From Selaginella moellendorffii (lineage: Eukaryota; Plantae; Lycopodiophyta), in contig NW_003314283.1 of assembly GCF_000143415.4 (NCBI RefSeq), positions 1,850,330 through 1,914,329 on the forward strand: 64,000 bases of DNA, read 5' to 3'. How positions within the stretch are numbered: position 1 is the first letter of the stretch; every line of letters begins with the position of its first letter. Below are positions 3,139 through 47,755 of the stretch, in pieces. The notes beneath the pieces are model-generated. The model made no database searches. It was not told where the DNA came from and worked only from the letters and a program-made list of their open reading frames with translations. A program made the translations under genes and the position numbers.

Positions 3139-3449
3139 CTATGATAATGACGTTATTGAAGTTCAACAACTAAACACAAGAGTCCAGACTCAGGAAACCA
3201 TTTAGGAGATGCCAAATCCAAATACTGTTGAACCAGAGGAAATTGTACAGGAAATTCCAGCATAAGAAATTCCATTACCTGCTCCTCACAACCCTCGAAG
3301 GGGCCGTTGTGAAGCCTTTCATGAGAGTAAGGACTTTGATTTAGAACATTCTTTTATTCATTCTTGACTTCACTTTTTTTTTAATAGATGTTGTAGAGAG
3401 CAGCTATCAATCTTCTTGGCGGACTAAGACATTCTTCCCATCCCTCCCT

Positions 3450-3728
3450 ATGGCTACAGATGATGACCTGGAAGAGCTCTCCTTTGCAGCTATGCATAAA
3501 CAAGTTAGTAAGCATGAATTTTATCTCCAACTTTTAGTTCTAGTAATTGATTTTCCGATTCGCCCTCTATCCCCAACGGCCAATGTTAGGGAAGTTGCTA
3601 TTCTCATTGGGGATTACATGCAGCTTTTAGATGCTACTAGTCAAGAGCTTTACATGCTTGATCGGTGGATCCATGGTCTGGGTCAACTCACACCTTATGG
3701 GAAGATCGGTTTCATCTTTTTCGATCTT
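3450..3728 (+). pseudogene. N-terminal half of a beta-class N4C/N6A DNA methyltransferase-like gene, split by the transposon insertion
   Basis: VAILIGDYMQLL (resembles ..GD.l..L) and KIGFIFFDL; the reconstructed empty site reads FIFFDLPDRMPPP, at the position of motif IV (vDli.tDPPY). Confidence 0.7.
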
Positions 3729-3755
3729 AAGCTCTATTTCGTTAAAGTGGGATTT
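3729..3755 (+). repeat. Left TIR of the Sola-like element
   Basis: aagctctatttcgttaaagtgggattt. Confidence 0.93.
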
Positions 3756-4388
3756 ATTCAGTAAAATGGGACTAGGTACAAATTTTCAAGTATTTGAAAA
3801 TGACGTGAAATTATATGTTTTCTATCCAAGGGCTAGACATATCTGGGGCATGGTGACTAGCGCGGTGACTTTGTGTCCAGACTGAGTCCATCTGGTTGTA
3901 TAATAAATCTCATTGTCAAGGTGAACAAGCCGAATCTAAAGCTAAAGAAGAGCGATGGCATGCGCGCACACACTATTTGTTTGTTCATTGAGCGTGTGGT
4001 GAGCTTTCCAAGATGAATGTCATTCCTATTAGCTAGACATATAACTTAATGGTGAGAACATTTAGATATTATTCAATGTTATCTTTTTCTAACGAATCAA
4101 ATTGTGAAGGTGTAGCAAGAGGCATTGCTAGTCTGGAGAAGTCATTTAACTCATTTGACCTTTAGTGTATTTTCATAAAACTAAATAACATTCATATTAT
4201 TAAGGAATTTCTCTAGTACCTTTTTTTTACGACATAGAGGCTTGCATTTCTTTCAAAGGTGATTTAGTAAAAGGCCTGAGGGCACATGCCATTCTATTTC
4301 TCAGACCGGTATTAAAATATACTAGTGCAAAGGGAAAAAGGTATTTGGTGATCAAGTAAATGGCATGAGGGCACACGCCATTATAAGC

Positions 4389-4661
4389 CTAAGCGCTAGT
4401 GGACACCTCCTTTTTGGTACTCTCAGCGGTACTATCATCCTTCTCCGGGTCAGTTGTTTTGCTTTGGATTGTTGTCTCTGACGTTACTGGGGCGTTCTCG
4501 ATAGTTGTTAATATTGCCGTTTGTTCAAAAAAATAATCACCTGGAGTATAGTACGGGGAGTTTGGAAGACTTATATATTCTACATCTTCACCTATCTCCT
4601 TCTCCGTTTCCTTTTCTGCCTCACTTACAGATTTTGTGCTTGCCTTGAGAACGCTCTTCAC
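4389..4661 (-). CDS. Small unknown cargo ORF/exon (SLPxSxYYTPG motif)
   Basis: Protein-level similarity to ORF 25928-26272: SLPNSPYYTPGDYFF vs SLPQSLYYTPGTYYLF; NAPVTSETTIQS vs NAFVTSETIVQS. Confidence 0.55.
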   Translation of the reverse strand: MKSVLKASTKSVSEAEKETEKEIGEDVEYISLPNSPYYTPGDYFFEQTAILTTIENAPVTSETTIQSKTTDPEKDDSTAESTKKEVSTSA

Positions 4662-5359
4662 CCTAAAATATGGAGTTCATTGTGTTATAAAAGGAAACCA
4701 ACACACACGCTGCAAGGGAATGATGGTACATAAAGCACGTAAGCCCACAATATGGGTTTATGTGCCATTAATATGGGCCACACGCCATATTATTAGATTT
4801 ATGCACGTGTGATTGGTAAATGCATATGTCACATCATCTTTGTTTTACCTCACACATTATATCAGGCCTAATGAACCATATCACATATGCGCACATGCTA
4901 TATATATGGAGAAGTATTATGCAAGGATAGAAAAATTCAATGCATGATTGTGGAGAGCAATGGCATGAAGCCACATGCTAAATAACATTTTAGAGAAAGA
5001 ATTAAAATAAAAACATGCAAACAGTACTGAGTGGACCAAGACTTAGAAGTGCACAATTGAATGAGGTATTTCTAATAAATATTTCACTCACCTCATATAG
5101 GAATGGCTACCACTCTCAAATGGCGTATTGCCTCATGCTATCACCTCGCAATTTGTTATAACAATCTGATGAATTCATATTCGGCTTGTTCACCTTGAAC
5201 TTTAAGTAAGATTTGCTAGAACAACTAAGAATTTATACTTGTTATTTGTATCATCTCACCTAGGAATGGCGTAAGGCCACATGCCATCACACCTCCTCTG
5301 ATTCAGATTCGGATTGTTCACCTTGAAATAAAATACATTAGAAACTTAGTAAAGGAATA

Positions 5360-8185
5360 TTAATGAATCTCACCTTGAACCCGGGTTATGAATGCTCTTG
5401 CTGCATCTCTTGCATGGTCTGGCAAGGTGATGGTGGCACTCTGCTTCCGCATCCAACCATGCACAACATTATCCACCGATATGCTCATGTTGGGATCCCT
5501 TGGATTCAGCACCCATCTCTTTTCTAGGCAATCCTTCGTATATCCGGAACTTGGCTTGAACCACTCCACAGTTACATTGAAGGAGTTAGTTTCCACATCC
5601 TCCTCTGCATCAGTGATGCAGCGCCCCACCCATATCATTTGTTTTTTATTACTAGGTCTGACAAGCACGACCATTCCTTTGCAGACCTGTACTGGATTGA
5701 ATGCTGAATCCGGCTTCTTGTTCCTCGGCCCACAATAGTGATCCTCAACATCGTTATCTGTCACTGCATTTCCAGAGGACATTGTTCCGCTACTATCTGG
5801 TGCTCTGGGTTCTGGCCAAAAGGACTCTTCCAATTCTTCATATACAACCGGCCCATTTTGGATAGCAGATATAATCTTCTCCCAGTATTTGAGCAAAGGC
5901 TTGCACCTCTGAAAATAGGATTCTCCACCAAACACCAACCCCCTCTTCCAGAAGGCAATATGCTGTCTAATCCTGGCCACTATACTTTCCTGGTCTTTGA
6001 GTCCATCCGGGTGCATCGGCCGTGGGGAACCCTGAGGAATCATAGGTTCCCCAGTTATGGGATCTCTCTTGAAGAGTTCAATGTCGTCCACTGGCAGCCA
6101 CACTGTATCCCATTCTCTCATCTTGTACCTCATCACTGGAGCACTGTCACGCATGCTGAAATGAAACTGAAGAGGCTTGGAGTGGCCAATCAGCGTTTCG
6201 GATCCGTCCCTGATGTAGCCTCTTACAAACCCCTTAAAGTCTTGAACCTCTGTCAGAAGTGCAGCTTCAATAGTGCCTTTGATGCAATTTTGGAATTCAT
6301 CGTAGAGTTGTGGGAGGGTGAGGACATTGGATCGCCGGAGGGACTCTGCCAGGTGACTGAACATGGCATCGACGTCTTCATGAGTGTGCCGAACCATGAG
6401 AAAGCCAAGTGTAACCGTTTCAAATATGCATTTGGCAACAAGCATCGCCAAGTACGCGAAGACGTACATGTTTTTGTTCTCACTGCCAGCATTGTCTGTT
6501 TGGAGCAGAAGATGGGGTGGAAGGCCACATCGGCCGCAAGAACTTCCTTGAGATTCTGCTTCGTTTGGATGAGGCTGTGCATTCACCGGGCGACCAGCCT
6601 CGTCGGAATGGCATGAGGCCTCACGTGATAACCCTACAATCTGACGGCCAACATATTCACTGGGATGGCATGGGGCCTCACGCGATACTGCAAGCCTTTG
6701 CTCCTCCTCCAGCTGAACCCTGTATGGGGTTTGATCGACAAGGGCCTTATGCAAGGGTTGGCCGTTCAGCTCAGTCTGCGCACTTTGCAGAGACCTTAAG
6801 TATTTTGCTAGGGACGCAATCATCATGTTTGCACCCCCGCCACCCCATAGAGGTACAAAGAAGTTCCCATAGTTCTGGGCACCATGCCCATGAGCGATTA
6901 TGCCAAACAGAGACACAGGCAGCTGCATGGATGAAGAGATTGCCTTGGGGGCAGGATTGAGTCGAGGTAAGCACGTCTTTTTCTGGTCTATTTTGTCGTG
7001 GATGATGCAGAGGTAAGAGTCAGGTCTCTCCATGGAGAGAATCCTGTTATGATAATATGCAGTCCTGCAGCTTCTTTGCTCGATGTTGTGGTCGAGCCGC
7101 CTTCTAACCAACGTCTCTCGCTCTTGAGCGATGCAAGAATTCTTCGACAAAGCCATTTTGATAGCAGTGCACTCGTCACACTTTGAAAAGCTGGAGTACT
7201 TTCCTATACTCACATTCCTGAACCTGTTGCTCCACAATCTACTAAATCTAGATTGGCTCAGCTTCCTGTAGCCATTACTCTGGAGTTCCCGATTCACATC
7301 TTCCAATATGGCCCTCTTGGTATACATGGAAGGGAGAACTCGTTGGGTGTCTCGTGTTCCATCTTCCAAGAGGCGGGTTTTATGTGGTTGCTGCTTGCTA
7401 CATGTCTAGACAAACCTCTTGAAGATTGCCTCTCCATATACAACATGACCCCTGGTTTTGTGAGTACCGTCGTTTCCATGGACTGCCTGTTGAACCCTTT
7501 GTTCCTCGAACTCAGTTTTGATTCTGTAGAATGTGGTTCGAGGGACTCCATAAATGATTCTCCATGCCTTCATGCAGACCAAACCCTTCTGGAAGACCAT
7601 GCCCCCCACCTGATGTTCTGAAGCATCAACAGATGACCGTAATGCCTCATACACAAAATTGCAAGCTGCCTTCCAGGACAATGTCTTGTATCTTGCTCTC
7701 TCCTCTTCAATAGCATCCCAATTAGCATGTTGACAGCACCTCCTCTTGCAACAAGCAACTGTCGAGACCATTCAAACCTCTATCGCCATTTTCTGCCTTT
7801 TCGGTTCGTTGCTCAGATCCCTTTGGCTGCGCTTTAGGAAGGTGTACTTTCTTTTCCCATGAAGAGATGTTCTGTCATTAGTTGTAGTGGTGTTTGATTG
7901 TGAATCCTTCACATTCTCAAACACTAAGTGCCTCAATTTCCACCGCACAATGCTTCCAATAGTCAGACTATTTTCTTCTGTGTCAACAACCTCTAAAATC
8001 GCAACTCCAATATCATCCCAGCCCAATTCTTGATTAGCAACCACATCTCTTGGATCGACAACTGTGGCTAAGCCCTCAGCTACCACCTCCCCCTCGTGGT
8101 TGTTTAGAAACACCTTTGCCTGAATCCATATAGCACGGTTCTTAAGATCCACGGAGGGAAGATGTGTCGCACTTGCAGAGGCCAT
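5360..8185 (-). pseudogene. Sola1-like DDD transposase (~940 codons, two in-frame premature stops) with an N-terminal Tnp1/En/Spm-like beta domain
   Basis: ORFs 7772-8185, 7406-7771 and 5360-7369 share one frame; motifs SKCDEC, IIHDKIDQKKT, LQTDNAGSENKN, GFLMVRHTHEDVDAMFS; N-terminal VVAEG..VDP..V..LG; splice acceptor just upstream of 8185. Confidence 0.85.
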
Positions 8186-8373
8186 TCTGAAAGTGCAGAA
8201 AAGAAGTTAAGACCATACAAAAAATGATTGGAGAATGGCCTAAATCATAACATACCAAACAACCTCAATAGCATGAGGCCACATGCCATTATTCAAACAT
8301 GCTATTGACACCCACATGAAATTTTGCATTCACAAAATTGGCATGAGCCCTCATGCCATTAGTGGTACCACTA

Positions 8374-8565
8374 ATGGCATGAGGCCTCACGCTATCTTTG
8401 GCCCCTACTAGCCTATTGCTATATTCCTTTCGCCTTGCTGCAACTGTATATATTTTTGTGTGCGTGATTAGTCACCCATACAAAAATATATACAGTTGCA
8501 GCAAGGCAAAAGGAATATGGCAATAGGCTAGCAGGGGCCAAAGATGGCATGAGGCCTCATGCCAT
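8374..8565. repeat. ~190-bp foldback (inverted repeat) whose arms end in the 22-bp palindrome
   Basis: atctttggcccctactagcctattgctatattcc...tttttgt pairs with acaaaaatatatacagttgcagcaagg...ggggccaaagat; centre gtgattagtcac. Confidence 0.93.
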
Positions 8566-10622
8566 CTTGATATACACACAGCTGCAGGCAAGTAAAAACA
8601 TACATGACAATACGCTAGCCATGAAATTGCAAGGGCCCAAGATGGCATGTGGCCTCATGCCATTTCTAAATGTGGTCCTAAGCCATTCCATGGTGAACAT
8701 ACCAGGAAGCACAAGTGCCGAATATCAAGAGGAAGCGGTAGCCACACCAAAGACAGTGCCGCTCGCAACACCGCAACTGCTCGTAGCGCCGCTCGCAAAA
8801 ATTGCCACTCGCATATACTGCCGCTTGCAATGGCGCTCGCAATGCCGCAACCGCTCGTAGACGCATAAACCACAGCTCACAACGCTGCTTACACAAGCAG
8901 CGCTCACTGCGCTCAGCGGAACCAAGAACACAGCGCACAAAAATGATAGACCTAGGAATGAGTTCGAGAATTCAAAAATAACACACGCTTGAACGTCACA
9001 TCAAATCCTCTGACAAACCAGATCTTATAATTCCTCTGACAAATTTCAAACTGAGTAGCTTCTAGACTTTGCTGTCGGAGGTTGAACTTTGTCACATCAT
9101 GTCCTTGCCTCGATCCAGCTGTGCATGTCAGTGATTCGAACTTTGCCATGCCATGTCAGCGATCCGTGCCAAGATTATTCGCCGTGTAAAGGAATAATTA
9201 TGTTGTGTGTGTACGTCCATTTATGGCAATATAAGGCCACACGCCATTCAAAGAATAATGCTAGTCGAGCATTTTTTGGTGCATTTTTGGGTTCAAAATT
9301 GCATGAGCCCACACGCTACAAAGTTTACCTGTACCAAAAATAGAAACAGCTTTATTTACTTGGGAATTTAAGTGGTTGAGGCATAAACCATAAACCATAA
9401 ACCATAGGACCATAAACACATTTCAATAGAGAGGGTCCTTTTATTTCATACCTCGTTACGTAGATCTTGGTGAAACCAGAGTTAGTGAAGTTGGTTTCTT
9501 GTGATCCCGCATGTGATTGTGATGTCCCTTTGCAGTGTCGATGGAAAGGTCAATGCACACCAAACTGTAGAATTTTGGAGCAAAATAACGGTCGGATCTA
9601 TGGCAAATGCCCCTGAAACATTGTAAGGCTCGTGTGGTCTCATGTGGTGTCCGATCGAGATGCTTCTTTGCAGGGTTATCAAGAAGGACATTATATACCA
9701 TTCTTTATTTAGCTGAACATCTGGCATTTTTGGAAATACAAGATGCTTTGGAATATCCAATCATGCATGGTATAAATATAGCGAGGGTATTAAATGATAT
9801 CCCAATCATGATCTTTCTTTTGGATTTCGTGTGCATGCAGTCCGAGGAATGATGACGTTGCGGATTTCTTTTGGATTTCACGTGCATGCATGCGCGCGGC
9901 GATCTAGAAATTAATGGTGGCGCCCAAGTCTGAGGAATGATGACGTTGCGGGATTACCAACCGTCGTGACATTTCGTGCGTGTGAGGTTAGGTTTTGCAT
10001 TTTGCTTCGTACTCGCGCTCGCACACTCGCGCGTGTGAGGTTAGGTTTTGCATCGTACTCGCGCTCCCACTCGCGATCACGCTCACATTCGCGCTCATCT
10101 ACCTTCTCTACAGGTTTCTCGTGTGCATCGGCGTCCACTCGCGCTTGCATCACACTCGCGCTCGCATCGCGCTCCTGTGCATCGGCGTCCACTTCAAGAC
10201 ACACCCAGTTTGTAACTTCGCCGCCAACTCCGCCGCCCACTCTGCCACCCACACGCAGCCCACTTGGCATCCCGGGAGATTTCAGCGCCACTCTCCAACT
10301 ATAAGTGGCAGAGTAGCCTTGCTGCTACGATCCGCTGCACACACAGTGCACATTTGCTAGCGAGTCCGGCCTCGATTGTCACGGCCTCCATTCGGCTTCA
10401 AATGGTAAATCTTTTAGGCCAAGTAGAAAATGGCATGAGGCCACATGCCATTCAGTAGCAACATTGGCATGCACCGATTGGGCTCTCGAGTGCAGTCCGG
10501 TTACAGATGGCGTGTAGCCTCACGCCATCTTAGGATGCAGCCTCAAGACATCTGATGCAGTGGTGAATGGCGTGTGGCCTCACGTTATTTCCAGCTACTA
10601 GCTTTTCATTTGTCAGCTCTAA

Positions 10623-13200
10623 TTGTTGTGCATTTCTGAACAGGCGAGGAATTGCGTTCTTCTTCCAGCCACTGTCAATGTGGATGCAGAGAAGGGGGAG
10701 GAGCTCACCAGTTGGACTTTCGGGATGGAAGGCGAGGATCTGAGGCTGTACAACACAGATGGTGGGAGAAAAGAATGCATGGGGATCCTCATCCAAGTGA
10801 CAGACACTCCATGCAGTTCCATGCAAGAATATGGATTGGCACTTGTGGTACAGACAACGTCCGCCTTCAATATCCACCTTGCACATTCTAGCGGCTTCCC
10901 GGAGGGGGGCAGCGGCTATGAGGAATTCCTAGAGGGAGCTAGGGAGAGGTTGTCCAAGAGGCCCACAATTTCAAAGACGCTGCGGGTCTATGAAGATCAC
11001 ATGGAATCCACGGACCTCACCTACGGCGATGTTCAAAAACTATATTCCAACATTGAGCCGTTGAGAGTGCCTCCAGTTTGCGAAGCGAAGGGGAAGGGGG
11101 TCGATCTGGAAACTACCCCGAAGCAGAAAAGGGTGGTCAAGCTCAAGCCGACGTCTGACTCTCCTGCTCCAAAAAAGAAGCTACTTGGTGATGCCATTGC
11201 CTCGGGTTCGAACACTACACCCACCAAAAAGAAGAGCCGCAAAGAGCAAAAAGAGCAAGAAGAGGCAGCAAAAATCGTCGCAGATAATAGTACTTGTTAC
11301 TATTCCAACAAAGTATATACAATCGACGTGAGCCATATCGACATCCAAAGCAAATACAACCACAGGCTAGTATCTGATGAGTGGGTGGAGAAACTGAAGC
11401 AGAAGATGCTGGCAAGTCCAGTAAAACCCGACATCGCAGACGTGATCCCCTACTACCGAACAATGAAGGGCGAGACGAGGTTTCCAGACTTGATCAATAG
11501 GAAGGTGTTGGACGATCAAAACATCCGGTTCTATGCCGACTCTAGGCAACATTCTAGCTTGGCGATGCAAGAGATAGTTGTGGATATTATGGTGGGCGAG
11601 GAGGTGAAGAAAGTCTTCAAGACAAGAGTTGTCCGCCTGATAAAAGGCAACTCGCCCCTCCGATCTATCATATACATCTCCCACGCGCAGAATGTCAAGC
11701 AAGAAACATGCTACAAATCAGGTCTGCACGAGACATTGGCACAAACACGGAAGCTCTGGGTTCAACTGAAGAAGCCACAAAAACCAGGACAAGGACATGC
11801 ACTATCAACTAGCGCCTGGCAGGTAAGCCTCGTTGCATGTGGCATAGCATGTGGCCTCACGCCATTTCCATTGCAGGAATTCTCGAGTCTTCTCTCGAAA
11901 ACACTGGGGGTCAATGACACACTTAGCATCCATAACATTCTACTCGCGACAAAAGTTGTTTTTGACAAATGGGTAGATGTGCTGAGGAGGTACCATGACG
12001 GGGAGTTGCTAAACTCAATGGGTGTGGAGGATGGCCGAAAGCCCAATGATTTGAAGCTCAACGCCTTGCGTTTCTCGCGGTCTCTAGACGACGACGACCT
12101 TCTGACAGTGGCTAATGCTCTTCTACGTGGTGAAGTAGTCTTCAACAAGACCAAAATGACTCCCGGCCATATTATGACATACGAGGACTTGTGCACGACT
12201 CTGAGAGCTCGTGCGCTATTGAAGGATTGGATCTTCGAGCAAGTGGCCATGGAGAGGGTGAGCATCGACACCACACAAGAGATGATGGAAGAGCTGGAGT
12301 TGTCAAATGAAGACATCGACGACTACGTGAAGGGGGCCCCCAAGTTCATCGATCTGCTGCGGGATGCCACGAAAAGTAAAGCTGAGAAGTTGGATCAGTA
12401 TCCAAATTTCATTAAGAGGGATGTCGACCGCCGGCTTCAGAAACAGCTCGACCCCGCAGCAGAGGCCTATCGAGAACCTTACCGGGTATACGTGAATTCG
12501 GATGAGGATCAAAGGTGGAGGAGCATCGTTTCCCGCGGAGATGAGCAGGTCAAGAACATCTTTTGTGTGATGGACTTCACAAACGAGGAGATCACTCATG
12601 CAGACGAAGTCAGCTCCATCATTGACTTAATGGTGGGACTTGCAGAGGTGGAATCTTCAGTCCACTATATGATCTACGACTCCGAATCCTATCACAAGTT
12701 CTGGAAGGCCTTGAACGAGGTGAAGGCTCGGTTGAAAGGCAAGAAGATGCAAGAGATCCATGGGATAATGGCTAAGAAGAAGATACCGACGAATGTCCAC
12801 ATCTTCACACTCGCCCTTGTTATTGGTCCTGCAGCAAAGTGGGACTGGAGTGACTTCCCAGCTTTGTTCGACAAGGCCGATCGAATTGATCTGAGGGAGG
12901 TCAGTTTACCCGTGCCTGAGGAACTGAAGACGGCTATAGAGCTTTCGAATCCAGAGAAAGCTCCAGGTGCAGCATGGAAAATGCTCAGCTGGGTCTTCAA
13001 CGCAATAGCGGGTGGGTCACCTGCTTCCGACTCCAAGGGCAAATGCGTTGTCGAGTACAACTGCGGCGGACTATTATTTCGAGCCGCACTACTCAAGGGT
13101 GTCCCGTATGTTGCGGTGACAAACTCCATTGAAGAAGTGACTTCAATGGAGCATATAATTACAGTTGCCAAAGAAAAACAGTATCTTCTTTGCGAACCTG
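10623..13200 (+). CDS. N-terminal exons: ParB/sulfiredoxin-like domain plus amino-methyltransferase-like C-terminal region
   Basis: TIDVSHIDIQSKYNHRLVSDEWVEKLKQKM...FYADSRQHSSLAM resembles ParB-N (R....V..L...; G.HR..A); GKCVVEYNCGGLLFRAALLKGVPYVAV resembles VLDPF.GSG....AA...GR..IG. Confidence 0.6.
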
Positions 13201-15168
13201 GTGAGTACGCACTTTAAGTTTAAATGTTATCTCACAAGCTCTGTATGCAGGAGCGTGGCCACCCCCAGATGCTGAAACGGCGTTAACAGCTACTGTTGAA
13301 GATACCCATGTTGGGCCGAGCTCACAACCTGCACAAGGTAAGGTCACGTGAGGCCTCACGCCATTTTGATTATAAATCGTTGTTAATATTCAGACACGAG
13401 GACTGAAAAGCGCACTGGTGGCGCGTAGAAGAAGGACAAACAAACAAGCAATAGGAAAAAAGGAGGTACAAATTATATTTGCAATGGTGTGTGGTCTCAT
13501 GCCATTCCTTGCAGGAGACACTTCTTCAAAGGCAAAACAGGCAAGCACCAGCCAAGCTCAAACTGACAGTGGTCATAAAAAGCGAAAGCACGTTGGACAG
13601 TCATCGGGATCAGAGGCATTTGATTCGAAAAGGAAGAAGGGCAACGAAAAGATGATAGGTAATGCCTCGCGGTTATGGCGTGTGTGCTCATGCCATTCAT
13701 TGCAGATCAAGGGCTGAGTGAAAGCAGCCAGTCACCACCTCCTGACTCAGATTCCTATGGCGGACTCCCCTTCCCCAATCTCAATGGAGAGGTACAATGA
13801 ATGAAGGATGCTTTTCAAGTCAGGGCCACGTTTTTCTCATCTCGTCGTCTTCGAAGGGTGCAAGAACGTGCAGAAACCATGTTAAGACAGTCGGGTGAGG
13901 ATACGGTCCTAGGTTAGGCACTAAAACAGGCTATGGATGTCTTGTATTTTGAGATGGAGACTCGGCCAGATGATTTTCCCAAGATGGTCCTGGAAGAACA
14001 AGCCATCCAGCCTGAGCAGCCTATGGAAGAAATGCAGGAGGGGGATGAGGAGCCAGAGAAAGATAATGAGCAGGAAGAGCAGAAAAACGAAGAGGAGGAC
14101 AAAGAAGAGGAGGACGAAGAAGAGGAGGACAAAGAGGACTTGGATGGTCCTCACAATGGTGACGATCACAATAACGACGACGACGATGATGACGACGATG
14201 GCCAGCCTGAGGTGGCCAAAGAGCAGCGGAGGAAGGTCATACAAGACAAACCATCAGGTAAATAATAGTACATCCATTCCTAACCTTTTACCATTTCTAA
14301 CATTGTCCATGTAGATCGCAAAGCAAATGGTAAGTAGAGATTATTCAGTTGAATTAAGATACAAACTCTAGCCTTTAGTGTCGAGGAAGGATAGTGCCAA
14401 GCAAGGGTCGAAACGTATGTCCAATCCTTCAGAATCAACAGTGCGCCCAAGTGATATCGGTCCTAGTTCCTCAATAGCAGTTGATGGTAAATACAATATA
14501 GTCGATTCAATGTGCTAATGAGTTTGTTTTTAGTAGCCAGTAGGGAGGATACCATCTCAATCGAAGGGAGATATTTGGACATGCATATGGATCCGCCAGT
14601 GGACTCTACTTGCCTGCAAGAGTCATCAGAGCTGGTGGAGGCTACTATCCATATCAACGCCAAGCAAGCTGACCACGCTCCACTTGATGCTGCCCATACC
14701 ACTGAGTCAATCTTGTCCACGTATCCAACTGACGGTGACCAGGCGCCATTGGACCCGCATAAGGCCGCCCCAACCGCCGAGCCGGTCGTATCCTCATTTC
14801 CAACGGACTCAACGTGTGCCCAATCGTCTGACTACGCGCCGTTGGAACCTCCCTACACCGCCCCTACTGCTTGTTTGGTCATGTCCACTTTGCCAACGGA
14901 GGCACCAGCTGAAATGGCGTGTGATCACACACCATCAGAACCACCCCATGCCATTGTTGAGCCAGTTGTACCAGAGTCTACAGCTGAAATGGCATGTGCC
15001 CACACGCCATCGGATGTGATTGACCCCACATTGCAGAGGAGAGTATTTCCACCCTTCACGTTTCCTCGACCAAAACCCTCTCAATGACCATCGGGAGCAC
15101 CATTCGCTAATATTGTAGATGGTAAAATTGACTTGTACCATTTTTTATGTTGACGCATTTCATTTCAG

Positions 15169-16031
15169 AGTCACGGCGAAGGTACTGTATCGTTTTTGAT
15201 CTGAACGGTGTCCTTTTCTCCCATGAGCGTGGCTCGTCCTCGAATGTCACTTCACCCTCCAAAGCCTGCGGTCGCAAGTTGGTCAAAAGAGACAGATTCA
15301 CATTAATCACACGGGAGAAACTGCGGGATCTAATAATGACCATGCGACACTTAAAACAGAGGGCCGGGTTCAATTTGCAATTGGGAGTTTGGACATCCAT
15401 GATGCACCACAATGCATTAACGTTGCTACAGATGATGCACGATCAAATGCGAGTAATATTACCATTTGACTTTCTCCTAACACAGGAGGATTGCTTGACT
15501 ATGGTCCATGTGAGGGGTAGCAAGCCCATCTTCGTCAAGCCAGAGGCTGTAGTGATGAACTGGACTGCTAGGTCAAGTGAAATCCTCATCATTGATGACT
15601 CGCCGATTAAAACTGCAGCGAACATGCACACATATGCAGTGCACCCCATCTCTTGCAGTATGGAAACTAGGGAGAAGAAACCATATGTTCTGGGGGACCT
15701 TGCAAAACGGCTTGGAGCGATGGTGATAGAGAACCAGCCAGTCCAGGAGGTGGCTGCAGAAATCAACCAAATGGCAGATGGAACGGTATATCAGAAGCCA
15801 TTTGATCGGACAGACACCAATCATCATTTATGGCATGTATATTGTCTAGCCAAGCACTATCCGCATCTCCATAATCTGCTCAACCGGATGGGTTCTTCGA
15901 CCACTGAACATGAGCGTGGACGTATTAGAGAAGAGATGGCATTACTATTGGGTTTAAATCCTGATAGTGTGGAGAGTGATGAAATTCCAAGATTATTGTA
16001 TAGGCGTTGGAGGCAAAAAATAACAGTCTGA
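15169..16031 (+). CDS. FCP1/NIF-type HAD phosphatase-like domain (terminal exon)
   Basis: CIVFDLNGVL, LGVWTSMM, LLTQEDC, KPIFVK and ILIIDDSPIK..AN are hallmarks of the plant FCP1-homology (NIF) family. Confidence 0.85.
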
Positions 16032-16446
16032 GATGGCATGTATTTATTTTAAAATGTAACTTATTATGGCATGGGGTTCCATGCCATTGTATTAATATTA
16101 AAAGACAATTCTTTGAGAGGATTTGCATTATACTAGAAGTGTTACAGCATGTTATTGGAAGTCTACGAAGTTGTTTTATTAATAAGGGGAAAGTAAAGAT
16201 TGAATGGGGACTTGGGCTCCACCTAGACTCGGAGCAACTGAGCCAATATTAAAAGGATGGAAAGAAATTGGACGACGATGACAAAGAGAAGAGAGAGGTG
16301 AAGCAGTGGCAGGGGGAGGAGAAGTGATTGAGTAGACATTTCCTTGTTTAAAATAAAATGGCATGTGCCTCAATGCAGTTGAATTTTGTTATATTTATAT
16401 ACTATATAAAGGTTTGGAAACCTTATTTTACAAGTGGGATAATGAC

Positions 16447-16473
16447 AATTCCCACTTTAATGAAATAGAGCTT
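16447..16473 (-). repeat. Right TIR of the Sola-like element
   Basis: aattcccactttaatgaaatagagctt, reverse complement of the left TIR with 2 mismatches. Confidence 0.93.
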
Positions 16474-16477
16474 TCTT

Positions 16478-17101
16478 CCCGATAGGATGCCACCACCGCA
16501 AGGGGATACTCTATCATGGAGTGTGTTGTAAGCCCAACACATTTCCCAAGCCTTAAAGGTTGCGAGCAGCTTCATGACTTTTGAGGGTGTGGTTGTCATG
16601 ATCCTTCCCCGCTCTCTAATATGGAAAGGCCTTCTCGCACACTTGGCTGACAACAATGATGGATTTATCGAGTTTTCATCTAGTTGCCTTCTTTCGAGTA
16701 TGGTGGTGGACACAAAAGACACTAGTGGGCAAAAGCAAAAGGTGTGTGACTTCTTTATTTAGAAATTAACTCTATTCTTTTTTTTTTTTTTCCAGGTTTA
16801 TTCCTGGAACTACCATGCTCTATGCCACATTGGGAACCGGCGTAATACCATACAAGCTGATGAGTGTGCTGCTCTTGCTTTACTAGGATATGACAGCTCT
16901 ATAGACATCATCCCAAATGTGATTGACTTGGACATTCTTCACCCAGCATTCCTTGGTTATCGACATCGTTCGGTCACGGCCATGCAGATCTTGTTGGAGT
17001 TATTCTGTCCACCAAAGGGGATTGTACTTGATGCTACAGTAGGATTTGGGTCAATGGTACAGGCAGCGAAAGAGACAGGCCGAGAAGCAGAAAAAGATTG
17101 A
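16478..17101 (+). pseudogene. C-terminal half of the beta-class N4C/N6A DNA methyltransferase-like gene
   Basis: HRSVTAMQILLELFCPPKGIVLDATVGFGSMVQAAKETGR corresponds to motifs X/I of N6_N4_Mtase (KP..L...LI....G..VLDPF.GSG.T..AA...GR); one intron (~16742-16796) and a stop. Confidence 0.8.
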
Positions 17102-17366: not shown

Positions 17367-20300
17367 TGCCATTGCTAACGAATCTCACCACCTCCCATTC
17401 TGCCGAAGCATCTAGACCTCCACTCCTCTAGCTGCCTCAATTTCACTTGCTCCTTCAGGATGGTGTAATGAAGCTGCACTACTACAAGAGTGAGTCTCCA
17501 CCACAATGCCACCACCATCGATATCCTTGCTTGTTGCCCATAAAAGTGGCAATGGTTTTGTGCCTCCTAGAGTGCTTGCACTTCTGTCACTCTCCAGATG
17601 GACCAGCGCTCATGGCCCATCGCCTCCCAAACTAACATCCCGACTTCAGCCCCTATTGCGTCCCACTAGACCCAACTTCAACCCCTATCGTACTACTTGA
17701 ATCCTGCCCTTGACTTCATCATCCGTCACTATCGGCATGACCTGTTTATCTCCTGCTGGCAGCTGCATGTCGCCTCTCATAACCCGACAAGGACGCCCAA
17801 CATTCTGTTTTGGGGACACAATGAACCACACCTCCACATCACCATCCTCCCAAGTTGGTGTTGGGGCTGCAAACACCCGTGTCTAGGCCCCCAAGCTGAT
17901 GCGTTCCCTGTTTGGCTCCACGTCCCATTATAGAGCCACAACGTCTCCAGGTTTGAGACAATGCCTAGGCCAGAGCTGCCCTTTCTTCACCTCACTCACT
18001 GCTTTGATGATGCGAAGAAGATTGAGGTGGACTTTCCTCCACCATCCTTGGTTAAAGACTTGCATATGCCTTGTAGTCTTCCTCCTATCCTTGTCTAGAA
18101 CTCCCACCAGTTGCTTGAGGGTTCTGAAGCCTTCGCCATGCAGCTTTCTCCAGATTGTGTAGTGGTCTTCCCTACCCAATGTCTTGTCATCCACTTTGAA
18201 GAGGTCATTGAAGAATAGGGGTTGGTTCAGCCAGTCCTCCACTCGCCCTGGCATTTCCCTACTGACTAGAAACTTGCTCCATAACCTGAGAAACCCTTGA
18301 ACCAGTGTGCCCCCCTTGACTACTTGCTTCGGCCCTTCAACAAACAGCCAACGTGGATCCTTCTCCCATGGTGCCTAGTGTTGTGCCTAGGTCGAATTGC
18401 CAACAAACTCTGCCTAAACATGAGTCTTTACCTAGTTGAAGGCCCATAAGGAGGATTTTGTACCGTAGTGCCTTTGCCATGTTGCTCGGATCAATAACTC
18501 CAAGTCCTCCCAAGACTCGTGGACGTGTTGTGGATTGCCATGCAACCTTGGCCATGATCCTTCCTGTGACAAGCGCACCCCACCACACATACTTACGAAC
18601 CATCATGCGTACCTTTTTAAGAGTGCATTCAAGGACATGCCAGATTGAGAGGTGGTACCAAATGTTGGGCAGAATGATGCTCCTAGCTACAACCACTCTC
18701 ACTAGCAAACCAAGTTTCTGAGGAGCCCACTTCTGGATTAACATTTGTATCCTTCGGAGCAAGGTGTCATCTTGAAGTGTTGCATTAAACTGGGTACCAA
18801 CCTGAATCCCCAAGTACCTAGTGTCCTCTCTTGGTTTGAGCTACTGGAAGTCGATGTCTTGGCCCCATGACTCAATGCTTGGCTGCCCCTAGTTGATGCC
18901 CACTGATTTGTTCCAGTTGATTGCTGCGCCAACTGCGAGGTTGAAAGTCTCCAGTGCCTTCTTAGCTGCATCTAGGTTCTCCTTTGTTGCGAGGAGGAAC
19001 AAGGCCGTGTCATCTACAAATGCTCCATCCAGGAGTTCCTGAGTCACCCTTGCTATTCTTGGAAGTTGCTGTCTCACAGCTGGTAGGGTGAGTTCTTTGA
19101 TGCACCCACCTTCTGCTAGAAAAGTGCCTAGGGCCTTAACCACAAACCACTCGTGGGGGACACACTAGGGAAGGGATGCACGCACTTCCACTGCCGCATT
19201 TTCCCTCTCTGCAGTCCACTACTGGGCTGTGTACAGCAGTTGGTAGAACTCCTAGGTGAGCTGCTGCATCCCTTGTTGATCCTCGATGACCCTCCCATCA
19301 TTGTGCTTCAGTCCCAGGATGGGAGGACAGTCAGTCATTGGCCTGATTCCCCTAAAGAAAGACTTGTTGAGAAGGCATTCATTTAGGGCCCATTCATCTT
19401 CCATGGCCCAGACACCCTTGCTCCACGCTACATACTCCAGGTCATGTAGCTTGGCTTCCTGTTCATCCAATACTACTTGCCACTTGTTCTCATTTTGTGT
19501 GTTCAGCAACATCCTATGCACTGCTGCCACCTTCTACCTGGCCAATCTCACGTCCTTCATCACTGCTCCTTTGAGATCCTTTTGGCATGCCCGGAGCTTC
19601 TGGGAGCAAGACAAGAGCATTGGGATCAGTCCCATCTTGTCTTGCACGAGGGTGTCATGTATTAGCCCAATCGTCACTAAGTCTCGCACGTTGCTCTTGT
19701 GATTGAGTGCTGGACTGTTGTCCCTTTGTTCCTTTGAAGCTTGATCACACTGCAGAGGGGGTCGTGATCAGAGAAGGAGGTGAAACCGAGCCACGTCTTA
19801 AGGCTTCCACCATCCTACCATATGCGAGTTGAGGCATAAATCCGGTCTAGTCTCAATTGGGAGGTCACTGACTACCGCCTCGTAAAGGGGTGAGCATGAG
19901 ATGCAAACCCCATTGCATGTTGGAGGTCCATGATCCCTAGTGCATCCACAAGCTGACTCCACTGCTCCCACTCACAAAGTAGAATTATTTCCTGCATTCC
20001 CTTGCAATTGCAGATGTCCTTAACCATGTTGAAGTCTCCTAGAACCAGCCATTCATTTGCTTGCCCTTGGGTGGATTGCAATATGCTCAGCCAGAATTCT
20101 GCACATCTCCCTTTCCTCATTGGTGCATAGATGTTGATTATCCCCACCCGTCTGAAGTGGAGATGAAGGACAAGCAACTGAGCCTTCCCCGGAACCAGGA
20201 CAATGTGGTTTCGTACCTGAGCAGACCATTTGGTTGAGACTACCACTGCTGTGCCACCTCCTGATCTGGCCACCACTTGCGTGGCTGGGTTCCACCAGAG

Positions 20301-23300
20301 CCATCCCCTCATGCCAAAGGTGTAGTCTGGGGCTTCGATCATTTTGTGCTCTTGCAAACATAGGATGTTGATGCCTCCTAAGCTGATCTCGCGGATGTGG
20401 GACTTGAGTTGCACCCTTTTGTTGAGTCAACTGCTGGTCCAGCTGAGTCCCCGACAGTTCCAAGTGACAGTCATAAGTGTTGTCATGGAGCCATGTACTT
20501 CCAATAAAATGAGGTGTTGTGGGGTCTTGCCCTCCATTCTGTGGAGATGGTCCACACCATAGTCATCTTCCCTCTATACTTTGTCCATGAGAAGCCTTGG
20601 ACAATGTATCTCGCAAAGCTTGTCCACTTCATGATGGCACTCTCCATGCATTTCTAGTAGTCGCCAATGGTGACAACCTCCGGGAAGGCTGTGTCCCGCA
20701 GCACATCAGCCAGTCTCCTACCTCTATGGAACTTAATTCCCACTTAGGTGGAATCCACCTGATTGCCATTCCTACTGTCTAAGGGAGGACCGGCTGGAAG
20801 CCATCCCCTTCAATGTCAATGATAGGTCCCTCAAACAGTTTGGGCTGCAAGGAAGAGCCCAAGAGTGGTGGGGGCGACCGGGAAGCGAATGTGTGGCATT
20901 TGGTCAGGAGGGCGTGCCTTCAAGATCTTCTCTTGCTTTTCTGGTAACTCAAACGGCTTCTGGGAGGCTAGCCTGTTCCACTTGACTGAGCAGGCCTCCT
21001 CCCGGTATCCAGTACTCTAACAAAAGTTACATCTAGGTTCCGAGTTCTCCATTTGGATCCTGATATACTAGCCCAGCACTACACTCTCTACCAGGATTTC
21101 AGCCGGGGCTGAGACAAAAACCTTGAGTTGGATGGGGCCAAGGACACCCTCTGCTTCTACAGTATCAAGACCAAGCACCATCTGGCTGATACTCCCTTCA
21201 ACCAGCTCCTGGATCACCATTGTGATCCGCATTTCATGGGAATGTCCCACAATGAAATGTTCACTGGAAAGCTCCCACGCTTGAGGCGTGCCTAGTCCTC
21301 GCTGTGAACCTCGGGATCCATGGGTGGAATGACACCACCCAATGCTCTTGTCAATGAGGCCATGCATGGCCTCCTTTTGAGACTGTGCCTCCTCTGTCTC
21401 AAAGACAACTGTGTAACAGCCCTTCCCATGTGGTAGCATCTTCTTCATGAGGATCCCCTGTCCCAACGTTGTATTGATCAAGTTGTTAGCCATGCAACCT
21501 ATTGGGAACTTCCCTCTGAAAATTGCAATCAATGCCTTCTTACGGAGTTCCTCTTCCTTCTCTACCACTGCTCTTTGCATAGCCTCAGCTAGCTTCACAG
21601 GAATAGCCTTTCCTCTCGTGTCAACATGGACCAAGTCACTTTCACCTTCTCCTGCTGCTGCCACCTTGGGCACTTCTGCATGTCCAAATGTTTCCCCGTT
21701 CATGTTATGGGAGGCGTTCTTCTTGTTGCCATCACTATTCCCGTCCGAGGAGTGTAGTGCTTCTGCCACCTTTCCCTGGCCCCAAGTCTTCCCTGCTCTT
21801 GACTAGGCCTTTGCCACTCACTCAGACGTGTCAACCTCTTGGCACTTGTTCTCTTGCATACCTGTACTCTTATCAGTGGGGGCCTACTCCTCCTCGAGAA
21901 AGGCTTCAACTGTGTTTGTCCAGGATAGGCCCTCCTTGACAAGTCTCAGAGTTTTAAGTTTCTGCCATGTTGCTCGCTTCACTTTCTTCTTCTTGCATTT
22001 GGTCTTCCTCTTGTTGAAGATATCCCATTCCTGGAATTGAAGTGTCCCATCTGACTTTTCATCCAATGAGTGCTCGGTCTCTGGCTTTGTTTCTGGCTCT
22101 CCAAGTCTCACATCCTTTGTTGGTGTTGGTGCAACATCCAACTTGCCATCTTGCTCTTGTGCCCATGCATCAAACAGATCCACTTGCTGTGTGACCACTA
22201 CCTTCGTGATTAATTCCTGTGCTTCTCACAGTGCAGGTCCCAACACAAGGTCTTCTCCCAAAGGATTCAGGTCCAACTCTCTAGTCATGGACAGTAGAGT
22301 TGATTGGAGTTCTTTGGTCGAGCGGAGACCTTTGGATCCTTCCCTCAAAGTGGCAAGGGTCCCAGACCAACATCTCGGCCTCGTCAAGTCTTGGAAATGG
22401 AGAGGGGAGCAACACCTTCTGCCCCTCATATAGCACTGTGGGAGAGTCTAGGTCTGATTTCCTCTCTTGTGGCTGGTGTGCAAGGTCCACCTAGCATGCT
22501 TCCTCTTGCCTTCTTGCATGTACTGGGTCAGGGATGGGCCCATCCTTGTCTACAGGAGTCTCTGGGTGATATGGGGGGTTCCCACCAGCTGATGGCATGA
22601 GCTTGATGCATTCCCATGAGTAGGGAGTGTGCCAGTTGCCCAGTCCTTCTGTGTCTTGAGGTCCTTCGTTAGAATTCCAAGAGCTGCTTAACATGCATCC
22701 CACAGAGAGACGTTCCCCATGTCTTCCATGTCATCCATTTGGTGAGTTAGCTGCATGACTTCCTAATAGATTCGTTGTGTTGGATCACGATGCACCTGTT
22801 CCATGAACCTCTCACTATTCCAAAAGACTATACCACCACCTGCAAGCTTCAGCAAGAACAAGTGTAGACAATCTGTGTTGTCTCCAACCTGTCTTGCATT
22901 AGTGTAGAGCCTCGCCACTAGGGGCTGTGAGCTGGATCTTGGCCTCACACTTGAGGAACGAGCTGGTGAAGATGGGAGTGAAGCCCTGGGCTTGTTCGTA
23001 AGGTCTGACAAGCATTTGTGGGCAAACTTCAATGTCCGGAGTGGTTGTTCCTTGCTCGGCCCTAGGGCCACAACTGAACGGTCAATCTCCTTGGAGATCT
23101 CCTGGCCTTGGTTGTGTCTTTGAGTGAGGGATTGTGAACTCACCTTCTAATGAGACCTTCATATTGATCCTGCAGGACAGAAGCGCATCCACACTCGGGC
23201 CCTGTTCCTCCCTGTTTTTGGTCGTTCTGAGTGGGGGAGACTTGAGTTCTCCTGTCCCATGCCCTAGCTCTGCTGCTGCTGCATGTGCTGCTGCTCTGGT

Positions 23301-28773: not shown

Positions 28774-30403
28774 TGTAAGACACAAAATCCCTAGGCCCTA
28801 AAGTGGAGCCGGAAGGGCGCCATGTGGTAGTGGCCGAAGCGAAAGCCAAACAAATGTAACACGTTTGGACTAAAAAGCTTTGACTTGAAAGGTCAAAAGC
28901 AAGAGTGGAACTCTCAACAAAGTGCTTGAAGAAAGAGCATGAAATAAGTGAGGCTCTAAAAAGGGACCCAAAAAGACCGAGACGGAGTCCAAGATGGAGT
29001 TCGAGACGGAGTCTAAGATGGAGTCCGAGATGGAGTCCAAGATGGAGTCCGAGATGGACTGAGACGGAGTCCGAGATGGACTGAGACGGAGTCCGAGATG
29101 GAGTCCGAGATGGACCGAGACGGAGTCCGAGATGGACCCGAGATGGAGTCCGAGATGGACCCGAGATGGAGTCCGAGTTGGACCCAAGATGGAGTCCGAG
29201 ATGGACCCGAGATGGAGTCCGAGATGGAGTCCAAGATGGACCCGAGATGGAATCCAAGATGGAGTCCAAGAAGGACCCGAGATGGAGTCTGAGGTCGAGA
29301 CCGAGACCGGGACCGAGACCGAAATCGGGACCGAGACCAAGACCGAGGCCGAGGCCGAGTCCGAGCCTGAGCCCAAGTCCGAATCCGAGTCCAAGTCCCA
29401 GTCCCAGTTCGAGTCCAAGTCCAAGTCCGAGTCCTAGTCCGAGTTTGAGTTCGAGTCTGAGAGGGTGAAAGCCCAAAGCATTCGTCTCCCAAACCCTGGG
29501 GGGTTTGGTGAATTCCAAAAGTATAGTGAGGGGGAGGACTGTAGTGGAGCCAGTTTGGCCAGGAAAGGCCAGTATGGCCCAGGAAGGCTGTACCCAGTGT
29601 TGGGTGATGAGCTGCCCACTGGGAAGTCCAAGACTAGAGTGAATACAGACCGACAAGCGGGGTAGTTTGGTGAAGTGTTCAAGAGCCGGCTCTAGTTCCC
29701 TCAGGAGATCGATTGGATCTCAACGGAACCTCGCTCTAAGCCCATGGCTAGAGCACCTAAAGGCGGAAGGCGGGGAGAGTACCCATGAGGCCCACGTAGG
29801 GCCACAGTGTTCCGAAATGTTGTCCCAAAGTCCCAGACTGTGGAAAGGAAGAGGAGTGGCCCTCTAGTGTTGTGACCAAGGACACAGTCACACAATGAGG
29901 AAGTCCTAGAGGACAGTGGGACTTAGTGGTTGGTCCCATAGGCCTTGGTCCAGTGGCAGTGTTGGCAAACTCAGCCAAGGATAAAAAGGGACTTGGTGGG
30001 GACTGGAACGGAGATATTGGGGAAGGTTATTCCCCATGTTTGCAAGCATCCTAAGGATGGTAAAGAGTGGATTTGGGACGACCACTCATGGACGAATAGC
30101 CCAGTCTTGGAGAGATGGGATTGCAATGCAGGTGGTGTTAGACCACCGATGTGACCAAGGTGAATGAGCATGGCCTAGCGTAACAGGCTCATATGTCAGT
30201 GGTACTTTGGGGTGTCAGTCATGGGATCGGACACGTGGAGCACTTGGACCAAGTGCAAAGGTTGAGTGGCATGGATGCCATTCTCGGGGCTAGCAAGCCC
30301 CAAGTCCTGAATGGGACTTATAAAGGTTGTGAATGAGACTCCTTCAAGTGGTCGGAGGTGTGGTTAAGTGACTAAAGTAGAATGGAAAAATTAGTCGTTT
30401 ACA
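28774..30403 (+). mobile_element. Solo LTR (1,630 bp), same family as 1249-3138
   Basis: TG...CA termini; 5-bp TSD GATAT at 28769-28773 and 30404-30408. Confidence 0.93.
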
Positions 30404-37000: not shown

Positions 37001-39324
37001 ACAATATGGCCTAGATATTCCACCTCTGACTTTGCAAATTCACATTTGCTCTTCTTCGCATAAAGTTTGCTGTCACGAAGTAACAAAAGAACCTTGCGCA
37101 AATGCACCCTATGCTCCTCCATATTTTTGCTAAAAACAAGAATATCATCCAAGAAAATCTCCACAAAGTCATGAAGATAACGCCCAAATACCTTCGTCAT
37201 CAACCGAGTAAATGTGGCCGGTGCATTTGTCAAACCAAACGGCATAATTGTAAACTCAAAATGTCCGAAGCTTGTGTTGAATGCCGTCTTGGAGATAGAT
37301 GCATCATCCATTGCAATCTGATGATATCCACTCCTGAGATCAATCTTGGTAAACACTCGTGCTTCACCAAGTTTGTCCAGGATATCATCCACACGTGGCA
37401 TCGGCATCTTGTCCTTCACTGTCTTCTTGTTTAAAGCACGGTAGTCAATACACATCCGCATTGAACCATCTTTCTTCTTCACAAGCAAGACTGGAGCACC
37501 AAACGGAGACTTACTTAGCTGAATAAATCCAAACTCAAGTAACTCCTTGACTTGTCGTTGAACTTCTTGCTCCTCCGCATAACTTAACCGGAATGGACGC
37601 CAGTAAATGGGCTGTGTCCCCGGCTGCAATGTAATCCCATGCTCCACACCTCGTAATGGAGGCAATCCATGAGGAAGTTCAGATGGAAAAACATCAGAAA
37701 ACTCATCAAGTACATCCCGTACTGCTGCTTCTCCCCCATACGTGCCTTGGTCCCCCAAGTCACGAACAAACAGCAAGTAACTTGAAAGTGCTTTTCCATT
37801 ACGACAAGCCCACTTCAAAGATGTAGCAGAGAGCATAACAACTGGTGGTTGAACACCCTCGCCAAACCACACATCTTTAACGCCACCGTACTCCAGCGAG
37901 ATATGCTTAATGCTCCACTTTATCTCTAGATCCACCTTCACCAACCATGGCATCCCAAGAATGAGATCCACACGATGGATATCTGCGAGATAAAAAGTCT
38001 CCACAAGTGTGGTTTTGCCAACGAACACTTCCAGCCCCTCGACACAAGCATCGAAATGCTGAGCAGAGGTAGCCGCACCTTCCACTGTGTATGGAAGAAC
38101 TCCACGTGTGTTCAGGCAATGCTCCGCAACAAACTTTGCCGAAACAAAGTTGTCATCGCTCCCACTATCCAGTAAAATCCGCACTGGATCGCCACGGAAC
38201 ACGCCCTCCAGCATTAAAGCTGATTCACGCGTATCCTCAAGCTCCATCTTGTTCCACACATAGTTGAGTTGACGAGCAACGATCGAAAGTCGCTTCCTCC
38301 GACCGGAATGGTCATTCTCCTCATCCTCACGCTGCAAAGTTTGCAACTTTTTAGTAACTGACTTACCGTGAGAAGATGATTGGCCATTCTTCTTGTCCTG
38401 CTGCTTGTTCTTCAACTACGGACAATCAGCCTTGTAGTGTCCAAGTTCGCCGCAATGATGACAACCCTGTCTATAATTCTTCACAAATAACTTCTGCTTC
38501 TTGGACCAGCATCTAAAGTAGTCACCACCGACTTCAACTTGTGATGCTTGTTCCCATCCTTGTGTCCACGGTGATCATCACGACGATTCTCGACAGAAGG
38601 ACTCCGCGAACGCTTGCAAGACTTGTGCTTGTCATTGTCAAGTCAACGAGCCATCAAAGAGCTCCTCCAAACTCTTTGTAGGCTGAGAATGACACAAGTG
38701 TTGCTGCATGCTCTCACTATGTAGGCCATCAATGAAGTAGGACTTGTTCTGATCTGGATCCTTCGTTGGAACACGACTAATCAAGCGAGTAAGCTTCTCA
38801 ATATAATCCCCAAGCATCATTTTCCCTTGCTGGAAATGGTGAAGTTCTGTATGAGCATTCTCCACATCGTAATGAGGGGCAAAATGTAAACGGAAAGCAG
38901 CCTCAAACTCATCCATGGTAGACACTGGTGGTTTCTTATCCGCAACACGGGACTCCTCAAGCCAATTCCACCATTGAAGACCTGCATCACGCAAAACCAT
39001 CGGAATAGCCACTAAAGCCTCTGCATCTGGAGTTCCTCTAGCAGCCAAGAACTTCTTCACATTGGCTAGCCAAGCGAGACACTCGTCCACACCACCATCA
39101 CCGGAAAAAGTTGGAATCTTGAGTCGATCTACCAAAGAAGGCTTACTTGGAGCGCTACCCCATCCAGCCTCGAGTGCCTCAACCTGCCCATGCATGGTAT
39201 CCATCATGCCATGCATCTCGTCTTGTATCTCTTGCTGATTTCAGTTAAGGGCTCGCAACTCATGAACCACATCTTGAATGGTCCAAATCTCCGTAGGATT
39301 CCAGCGTTCAGCTTGGTCGGCCAT
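34013..39324 (-). pseudogene. gag-pol: Ty3/Gypsy gag-pol (gag, CCHC, PR, RT, RNase H, IN), disrupted
   Basis: LLDSGS protease, FLDDILVF RT, TCDASGYALG RNase H, ISMDFIT/SDRD integrase, GPY motif; order RT-RH-IN; stops and a Cassandra insertion. Confidence 0.95.
35927..36922 (+). mobile_element. Cassandra TRIM as a tandem three-LTR unit with 5S rRNA-derived LTR cores
   Basis: LTRs 35927-36121, 36327-36521, 36728-36922 contain GTTAAGCGT.CTTGGG...AGTACT.GG.TGGGTGACCTCCCGGGAAGTCC (5S A/IE/C boxes); PBS TGGTATCAGAG; TSD TCAAC on both sides. Confidence 0.95.

Positions 39325-47712: not shown

Positions 47713-47755
<43 letters not shown>

Follow-up and report, generated by a model that had tools for sequence, protein, structure and literature searches.

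Long lineage-specific palindromes in a Sola-like DNA transposon of Selaginella moellendorffii: putative binding sites for the element's own transposase

We analysed a stretch of 64,000 nucleotides from the lycophyte Selaginella moellendorffii (NCBI RefSeq assembly GCF_000143415.4, contig NW_003314283.1, positions 1,850,330 to 1,914,329 of the forward strand; hereafter the window), which contains a whole DNA transposon with a transposase gene, an accessory gene, and 27 copies of a 22-bp palindrome. A trait that recurs in this transposon lineage is the presence, in non-coding DNA and predicted introns, of long palindromes that differ from one lineage to another. The element ends are confirmed by the contig depth of public runs, which goes up near 3700 and down near 16470, by two junctions from other sites that resume at 3729, and by contigs that end at 16473/16474. 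Its termini are AA..TT, and 17 very small runs (one sample; 2-5 Mb of contigs each) contain 55-56% of the element's sequence words, which suggests that the family is high-copy. The features of the element are as follows, with the strand where one applies and the basis of each in brackets; "matrix" is the symmetric weight matrix described below.

3725..3728, + strand: left target-site duplication TCTT (sequence)
3729..16473: whole DNA transposon, 12,745 bp (contig depth steps, junctions, terminal inverted repeats)
3729..3755, + strand: left terminal inverted repeat (TIR) AAGCTCTATTTCGTTAAAGTGGGATTT (27 nt, 93% complementary)
3955..5287: seven palindromes from left TIR to transposase stop, at 3955, 4271, 4360, 4880, 4960, 5120 and 5266 (matrix)
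5360..8185, - strand: transposase gene, DUF7869, DDD-type (PF25273, E=2.4e-41)
6608..6686: two palindromes in transposase coding sequence, at 6608 and 6665, spacing 57 nt (matrix, alignment)
8187..8702, - strand: predicted intron in the 5' untranslated region of the transposase gene (GT..AG from sequence)
8268..8663: five palindromes in that predicted 5' intron, at 8268, 8338, 8374, 8544 and 8642 (matrix)
8374..8565: near-perfect fold-back inside the same predicted intron, 94-bp arms, a palindrome at each end (inverted-repeat search)
9226..9319: two degenerate palindromes between the genes, central region, at 9226 and 9298 (matrix)
10402..16031, + strand: divergent multi-exon accessory gene (predicted spliced frame open over six introns, one stop)
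10430..10588: three palindromes within the first predicted intron of the accessory gene, 10405-10643 (matrix)
11844..11865: palindrome in a 54-nt predicted intron, CTCAC at branch-point distance, -18 (sequence)
13343..13364: palindrome in a 56-nt predicted intron (sequence)
13484..13505: palindrome in a 49-nt predicted intron, CTCAT at -16 (sequence)
13675..13696: palindrome in a 47-nt predicted intron, CTCAT at -16 (sequence)
14914..15010: two palindromes in a low-complexity predicted exon, at 14914 and 14989, spacing 75 nt (matrix)
16066..16379: two palindromes 3' of the accessory gene, at 16066 and 16358 (matrix)
16447..16473, - strand: right TIR (inverted-repeat pair of 3729-3755)
16474..16477, + strand: right target-site duplication TCTT (sequence)

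The original prediction, made from the letters of the element, described a 22-bp palindrome spread over the whole element at about one copy per 450 bp and unrelated to the TIR. All three points are borne out: the matrix finds 27 sites at 5 bits or more (26 at 12 bits or more, against null values of 0.9 and 0.1 per 12.8 kb), the first starting at 3955 and the last ending at 16379, or about one per 470 bp, and comparison of the sequences reveals no likeness to the TIR. The same matrix finds 0 copies in the other 51 kb of the window. The matrix was derived from its own 27 sites and is thus circular, and the non-circular test is a count of mismatches to the predicted 22-mer: at up to 6 mismatches, 3950-16400 has 23 matches and the rest of the window none, where chance predicts 0.19 per 64 kb, so the flanking DNA shows no similar density, and at up to 3 mismatches there are 12, all in 4360-13364 (0.00 in shuffles). 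In its exact form, the degenerate pattern is absent from the viral and prokaryotic collections searched. The predicted consensus needs amending, as the palindrome is real but no copy equals that 22-mer (minimum 2 mismatches), and ATGGCRTGWGGCCWCAYGCCAT describes it better. Its length is fixed at 22 bp across copies, T at half-site position 7 is invariant (54/54 halves), position 6 is A in 30 and G in 21 halves, position 9 is A in 26 and T in 22, and A is enriched immediately outside the half-site (31/54, p=1e-5). A second small repeat, ATTCGGCTTGTTCACCTTGA-like, occurs at 3916-3977, 5174-5198, and 5265-5326, where it adjoins three palindromes, one copy being inverted near the left end.

Most flanks of the copies are unrelated, and five copy-pair comparisons with common flanks reveal local duplication. 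Such duplications (the 94-bp fold-back, an inverted pair at 3955/5266, and the in-frame 57- and 75-nt repeats), together with arrays of 46-49-bp period in related elements and the strong folding of the 8260-8670 region (z=-19), are what would be expected if the palindrome were a self-propagating or structural micro-repeat, forming a hairpin or cruciform and multiplied by local duplication and conversion with no protein partner, and put up with in non-coding DNA. We regard this as unlikely, in that the motif never leaves the element, the flanks are mostly unrelated, and pairing within palindromes is often imperfect (3-11 of 11 pairs) while the same half-site positions stay fixed nonetheless. 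Similar length and core also recur across transposases about 35% identical. An RNA-family reading was rejected on 0 Rfam matches at gathering score.

We further find that 23 of the 27 copies lie in predicted non-coding DNA, which makes up 39% of the element (coding 61%; p=9e-7), although this bias rests on a gene model inferred from GT-AG signals and frame continuity, and the copies are not mutually independent. The remaining four comprise two in a variable insertion of the transposase, between catalytic Asp 1 and Asp 2 (6608/6665), and two in the low-complexity exon. Of the clustering described at promoters, introns, and 3' regions, the promoter part needs amending: the central promoter region has only 2 of the 27, dense clusters lying just downstream in predicted first introns. 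Measured from the termini, 16/27 copies are more than 2 kb from either end, only 5/27 are within 1 kb, and the densest cluster lies 4.5-5 kb inside the element. This distribution, with copies in introns of both genes, makes it very unlikely that the palindromes, though bound by the transposase, act only as common subterminal repeats do, in building the transposition complex, and play no part in regulation. That explanation would suit an AT-rich clade of relatives described below, where copies are most frequent 2-4 kb upstream of the matched transposase core and 0-2 kb downstream of it, and the last copy is often 60-90 bp from the right TIR.

Three of the predicted introns (11823-11876, 13466-13514, and 13659-13705) have an identical type of 3' end, a palindrome followed by a T-rich TGCAG, which possibly reflects intron duplication and a double use of the motif. 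In the three short introns, the palindrome supplies CTCAY at -16 to -18, and the A just outside the half-sites gives them what we take to be a resemblance to YY1-type GCCAT sites; both would fit the recruitment of a factor from the host and not from the element, be it a transcription factor or, by way of the branch point, the splicing machinery. This is highly improbable: CCATNTT fits only 7/54 halves, most copies lie off branch points, other introns have branch-like motifs and no palindrome, and the five differing lineage-specific palindromes set out below would be left unexplained.

The variants of the palindrome carry further information. They had been read as CG-to-TG/CA decay from a perfect palindrome, but the change is one-sided, with G6->A in 30 halves and C5->T in 4 (p=6e-6; 16 vs 4 among 35 distinct halves). 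Such a bias is not what symmetric CpG decay produces, and that reading is rejected. Between 8240 and 9340, the window copy shows 15 listed differences from other family copies, taken from contigs of public runs, 13 of which are C->T or G->A or lie at C/G positions (6 CG, 4 CHG, and 3 CHH). The C->T differences at CG and CHG, like the TAGGGTT repeat of the window and the GT-AG introns of ~50 nt, point to a plant host. None of the 15 falls inside the seven palindromes of this interval (2.1 expected, P about 0.10), so the CA/TG letters of these palindromes are common to the family. The variant pattern fits a site that would tolerate C or T at one position only.

The transposase gene has two in-frame stops in the window, where family member P0001 is open, and its relatives of 1,054-1,069 residues have an additional DUF8039 domain. 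Aspartates are conserved in HDKMD, QxDN, and GHTHxDxD in 6/6 aligned proteins, from whose motif order we infer a catalytic DDD triad; a conserved CxxC is located before the first Asp. No transposase relatives were found in the viral contigs scanned, and no mention of DUF7869 was found in the literature searched, whose coverage is incomplete. The element fits a Sola-like assignment because of its 4-bp duplication, DDD motif order, and short TIRs, and its words HDKMD, QxDN..ENKN, and GHTHEDxD are presumably Sola1-like. As far as the portions consulted describe it, the Sola superfamily, which has been reported in a moss, shares with the window element a DDD-type transposase, a 4-bp target-site duplication, short TIRs, a size in the stated range, and the motif order Asp, Asp then xxKN, His..Asp (PMC10741241, PMC3627910). 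The Sola2 group was rejected by eye against part 1 of one alignment supplement (PMC3627910): of its motifs DFxENY, SDG..QYKN, and ATSHGK, the first and third words differ, the window transposase having its own words in place of DFxEN and TSHGK. The CMC/CMCT assemblage (CACTA, Chapaev, Mirage, Plavaka), for which the sections consulted give 5'-CA..TG-3' termini in most members and a C(2)C motif (PMC12730594), was rejected as well, on the AA..TT termini and on the CxxC, which precedes the first Asp and does not lie between the second Asp and the last acidic residue. We found no report of internal palindromes in Sola- or Chapaev-type elements, within a literature coverage that is incomplete.

Related elements were sought in metagenome contigs, and the best 80 of 366 related loci were analysed. 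Counting the window, five lineages each have their own palindrome: 26 bp in four copies in L001, 18 bp in 9-10 copies in L002, 20 bp in 10 copies in L018, and 22 bp with a GTGGCCAC core in an AT-rich clade, which has a FastTree support of 1.0 (tree of 47 rows). The clade motif has 335 matches, compared with 0-4 in shuffles, in 56/80 loci, and 0 in 80 kb of transposase-matched sequence; after removal of 19 duplicate loci, at least one copy is present in 42/61 and at least three in 35/61. Clade and window motifs have the same length and both contain the GTGGCCAC core, with a weak half-site correlation of 0.38 (permutation p=0.03). Window sites score negative on the clade matrix, and the window matrix finds only four isolated weak matches in the 80 loci, indicating that the exact window motif is lineage-specific. 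In 11 aligned loci, the clade palindrome lies within the same predicted transposase intron. Clade elements, whose ends were located by alignment, the automatic blastn TIR search being mostly noise, have AA..TT termini and end in AACACATATTT.. TIRs, with a perfect 4-bp duplication in L055 (CTAT/CTAT) and one mismatch in L045 (ATAT/TTAT). The TIR starts follow a pattern common to both, AAGCTCTATTT in the window and AACACATATTT in the clade. In L045, two TIRs enclose 4.64 kb with nine palindrome copies, in which only transposase remnants and no second gene were detected.

Long clade members have in common a decayed stretch of 3-5 kb that separates the left TIR from the palindrome array and is perhaps a second gene (L037 514-5700, L073 2106-7100, L066 1-3800, L038 2612-6800, and L017 2948-7800); in L037, L066, and L073 it has no match to a protein family. 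Upstream of the transposase match, L056 (5090-5538) and L070 (678-1131) repeat a 16-bp, GCAACAAGCTTGTTGC-like palindrome, which we did not assign to the element.

The accessory gene is predicted to encode an N-terminal region that is DUF3723-like and putatively ParB-like, a helical region, a methyltransferase-like remnant (a by-eye reading), an acidic low-complexity part, and a NIF/FCP1 phosphatase-like C terminus (NIF, E=5e-5). No oxygenase or SET domain was detected in the element. Distant relatives of the protein occur elsewhere (seven matches, six of them plausible), P0010 being a repetitive spurious match left out of the alignments and P0011 being left out of alignment A3 as misaligned. 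Word-index searches returned no relatives. A second candidate for the binder is the accessory protein: its putative ParB-like domain would take the palindromes as parS-like sites, load, and spread, its enzyme-like domains shielding the element from silencing. The N-terminal region scores 0.96 to DUF3723 clusters with the Atlas language model and aligns with relatives carrying DGQH/SGQH motifs, which we take to be ParB-like, and seven palindromes lie in the predicted introns of the gene. A mechanism of this type has been proposed for PAG3, an accessory gene of red-algal Plavaka elements, which has adjacent inverted-repeat arrays according to the sections of that report consulted (10.1101/2025.02.11.637652). 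Still, we judge this explanation rather unlikely, as the predicted models reach a predicted local distance difference test (pLDDT) score of only 33.2 and 34.7, no ParB match was found in Pfam, NCBIfam, PHROGs, or PDB sequences, L045 has no detected second gene, and none of the 80 loci yields a detectable relative of the protein, although 56 of them carry a related palindrome.

The original prediction had set the palindromes apart from transposase-binding repeats. The palindrome trait in fact follows the transposase lineage, and since the accessory protein lacks relatives among the 80 loci, the transposase is the favoured partner. The 22-mer is best read as a putative site at which the element's own transposase, or a product of its N-terminal DNA-binding part, would bind as a dimer, a reading to which we assign a probability of roughly 45%. 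Relative P0003 lends it slight support through a weak N-terminal match to a TNP1/EN/SPM domain. A dimeric-protein site, as had been proposed from the dyad symmetry, is favoured by the invariant positions, the fixed length, the mostly unrelated flanks, and the lineage-specific palindromes. Each 11-bp half would be read by one subunit, given the fixed length and the invariant T7. The free C/T at the CpG (CAYG) may let the protein bind C, 5-methyl-C, or T alike, T being plausibly equivalent to 5-methyl-C through their common methyl group, and such tolerance is what a protein that must find methylated copies would need. Many copies would be retained wherever the transposon tolerates them, probably arising through local duplication, after which the motif alone is kept. 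Sites loaded along introns and close to both genes would let the element recognise itself and keep up expression or low methylation, perhaps also pair its ends, and site and protein would co-diverge, giving each lineage its own palindrome.

Several observations weigh against this reading. The palindrome is unlike the TIR, and as the transposase has to bind the TIR as well, it would need two DNA-binding modes; hints of DNA binding in the transposase are below cut-off (HTH_psq, E=0.08), as is a weak N-terminal TNP1/EN/SPM-domain match (Transposase_23) in relative P0003 (E=0.023). Palindrome similarity does not parallel transposase similarity throughout, L001 and L002 having closer transposases (48-49% over the core) and less similar palindromes than the clade (30-41%). 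No palindrome family is seen in 15/19 de-duplicated loci without the clade motif; most of these are contigs shorter than 5 kb, but one, L030 (7.4 kb), lies within the AT-rich clade. L001, L002, and L018 are too short to reveal whether an accessory gene is present, L045 may be a deletion derivative, and L017, L037, L038, and L073 have 5-8 kb of decayed upstream sequence that could encode a diverged binder. Finally, the lower divergence within palindromes is not significant.

A wider proposal is that the palindromes of Sola-like plant transposons form a lineage-specific self-recognition code of long operators in their own introns, through which a methylation-tolerant dimer (the transposase or a ParB-type clamp that loads and spreads) would coat and reactivate the whole 13-kb element. 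We hold it to be doubtful; if true, it would represent in eukaryotes what operator or parS systems are in bacteria. That transposon families have self-recognition motifs of their own is an established principle, and we see long lineage-specific palindromes in Sola-like elements as a further form of it. As in VANC- and TnpA-type systems, a family-specific motif is enriched in the non-coding parts of the window element and its relatives. The part consulted of one report describes, for Spm TnpA and the AtMu1 transposase, clusters of motifs that are specific to a family, are recognised by its transposase or a protein derived from one, and co-diversify with lineages, to which the window element can be likened, and shows upkeep of expression or low methylation (10.64898/2026.08.24.746577). 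Those motifs are 8-10 bp and bound at termini or TIRs, whereas the palindromes here are 18-26 bp, mostly internal and intronic, and belong to another superfamily, with only putative binding. VANDAL elements with VANC are alike in that motifs accumulate in introns, intergenic DNA, and terminal non-coding DNA and differ among related elements; they are unlike in being Mutator-like, with a dedicated accessory protein and 8-9-bp non-palindromic motifs in tandem repeats (PMC5735166, in the sections consulted), in contrast to the long, mostly singly dispersed dyads of the window element. The Plavaka PAG2/PAG3 system likewise combines a DNA transposon, ParB-like and methyltransferase-like accessory gene(s), and inverted-repeat arrays as the proposed target, but in the same part of that report it has another transposase and tandem arrays beside PAG3 that are not spread through the element (10.1101/2025.02.11.637652). 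The ParB and methyltransferase assignments of the window element are only putative, and a further difference is that no oxygenase or SET domain was detected in it.

We found no description of such palindromes in the DUF7869/Sola-like lineage, in literature of incomplete coverage. Transposon escape from silencing is known from few flowering-plant families with short motifs (VANDAL, Spm, and AtMu1), and the present element adds a barely studied superfamily whose candidate target is long, symmetric, easily recognised, and lineage-specific. Five lineages with five palindromes provide matched motif-protein pairs for a test of co-evolution, and the palindromes are usable as a lineage marker in annotating such elements. 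Should the one-sided C/T tolerance be due to methyl-C recognition, it would explain how the protein finds silenced copies; if the wider proposal is true, these elements would supply orthogonal protein-DNA pairs of 18-26 bp for targeting the epigenome.

The element is inserted in a decayed amino-methyltransferase-like open reading frame (ORF; 3345-3728 and 16478-17101), which matches N6_N4_Mtase (E=0.012) and a PHROG DNA methyltransferase (E=6e-5), and whose frame runs on across the empty site. It is possibly an accessory gene of another element; hhalign gave no support for a relation between this flanking fragment and the methyltransferase-like remnant of the accessory gene. Much of the remaining window consists of decayed LINE-like (long interspersed nuclear element) and Gypsy-like retroelements, with ORFs at 18340-21800 (- strand), 34013-39240 (- strand), 50195-56335 (+ strand), and 61046-62743 (+ strand). 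An intact 611-residue ORF at 47676-49511 (- strand), with a kinase-like C-terminal region (HGD..N..DFD, by eye), sits between Gypsy-type retrotransposon remnants. A TAGGGTT repeat is also present in the window, as are GTCCGAGATGGA-type satellite arrays with conserved flanks at 3-396, 1481-2135, 28977-29461, and 57918-58690, a satellite that is very high-copy judging from contig depth.

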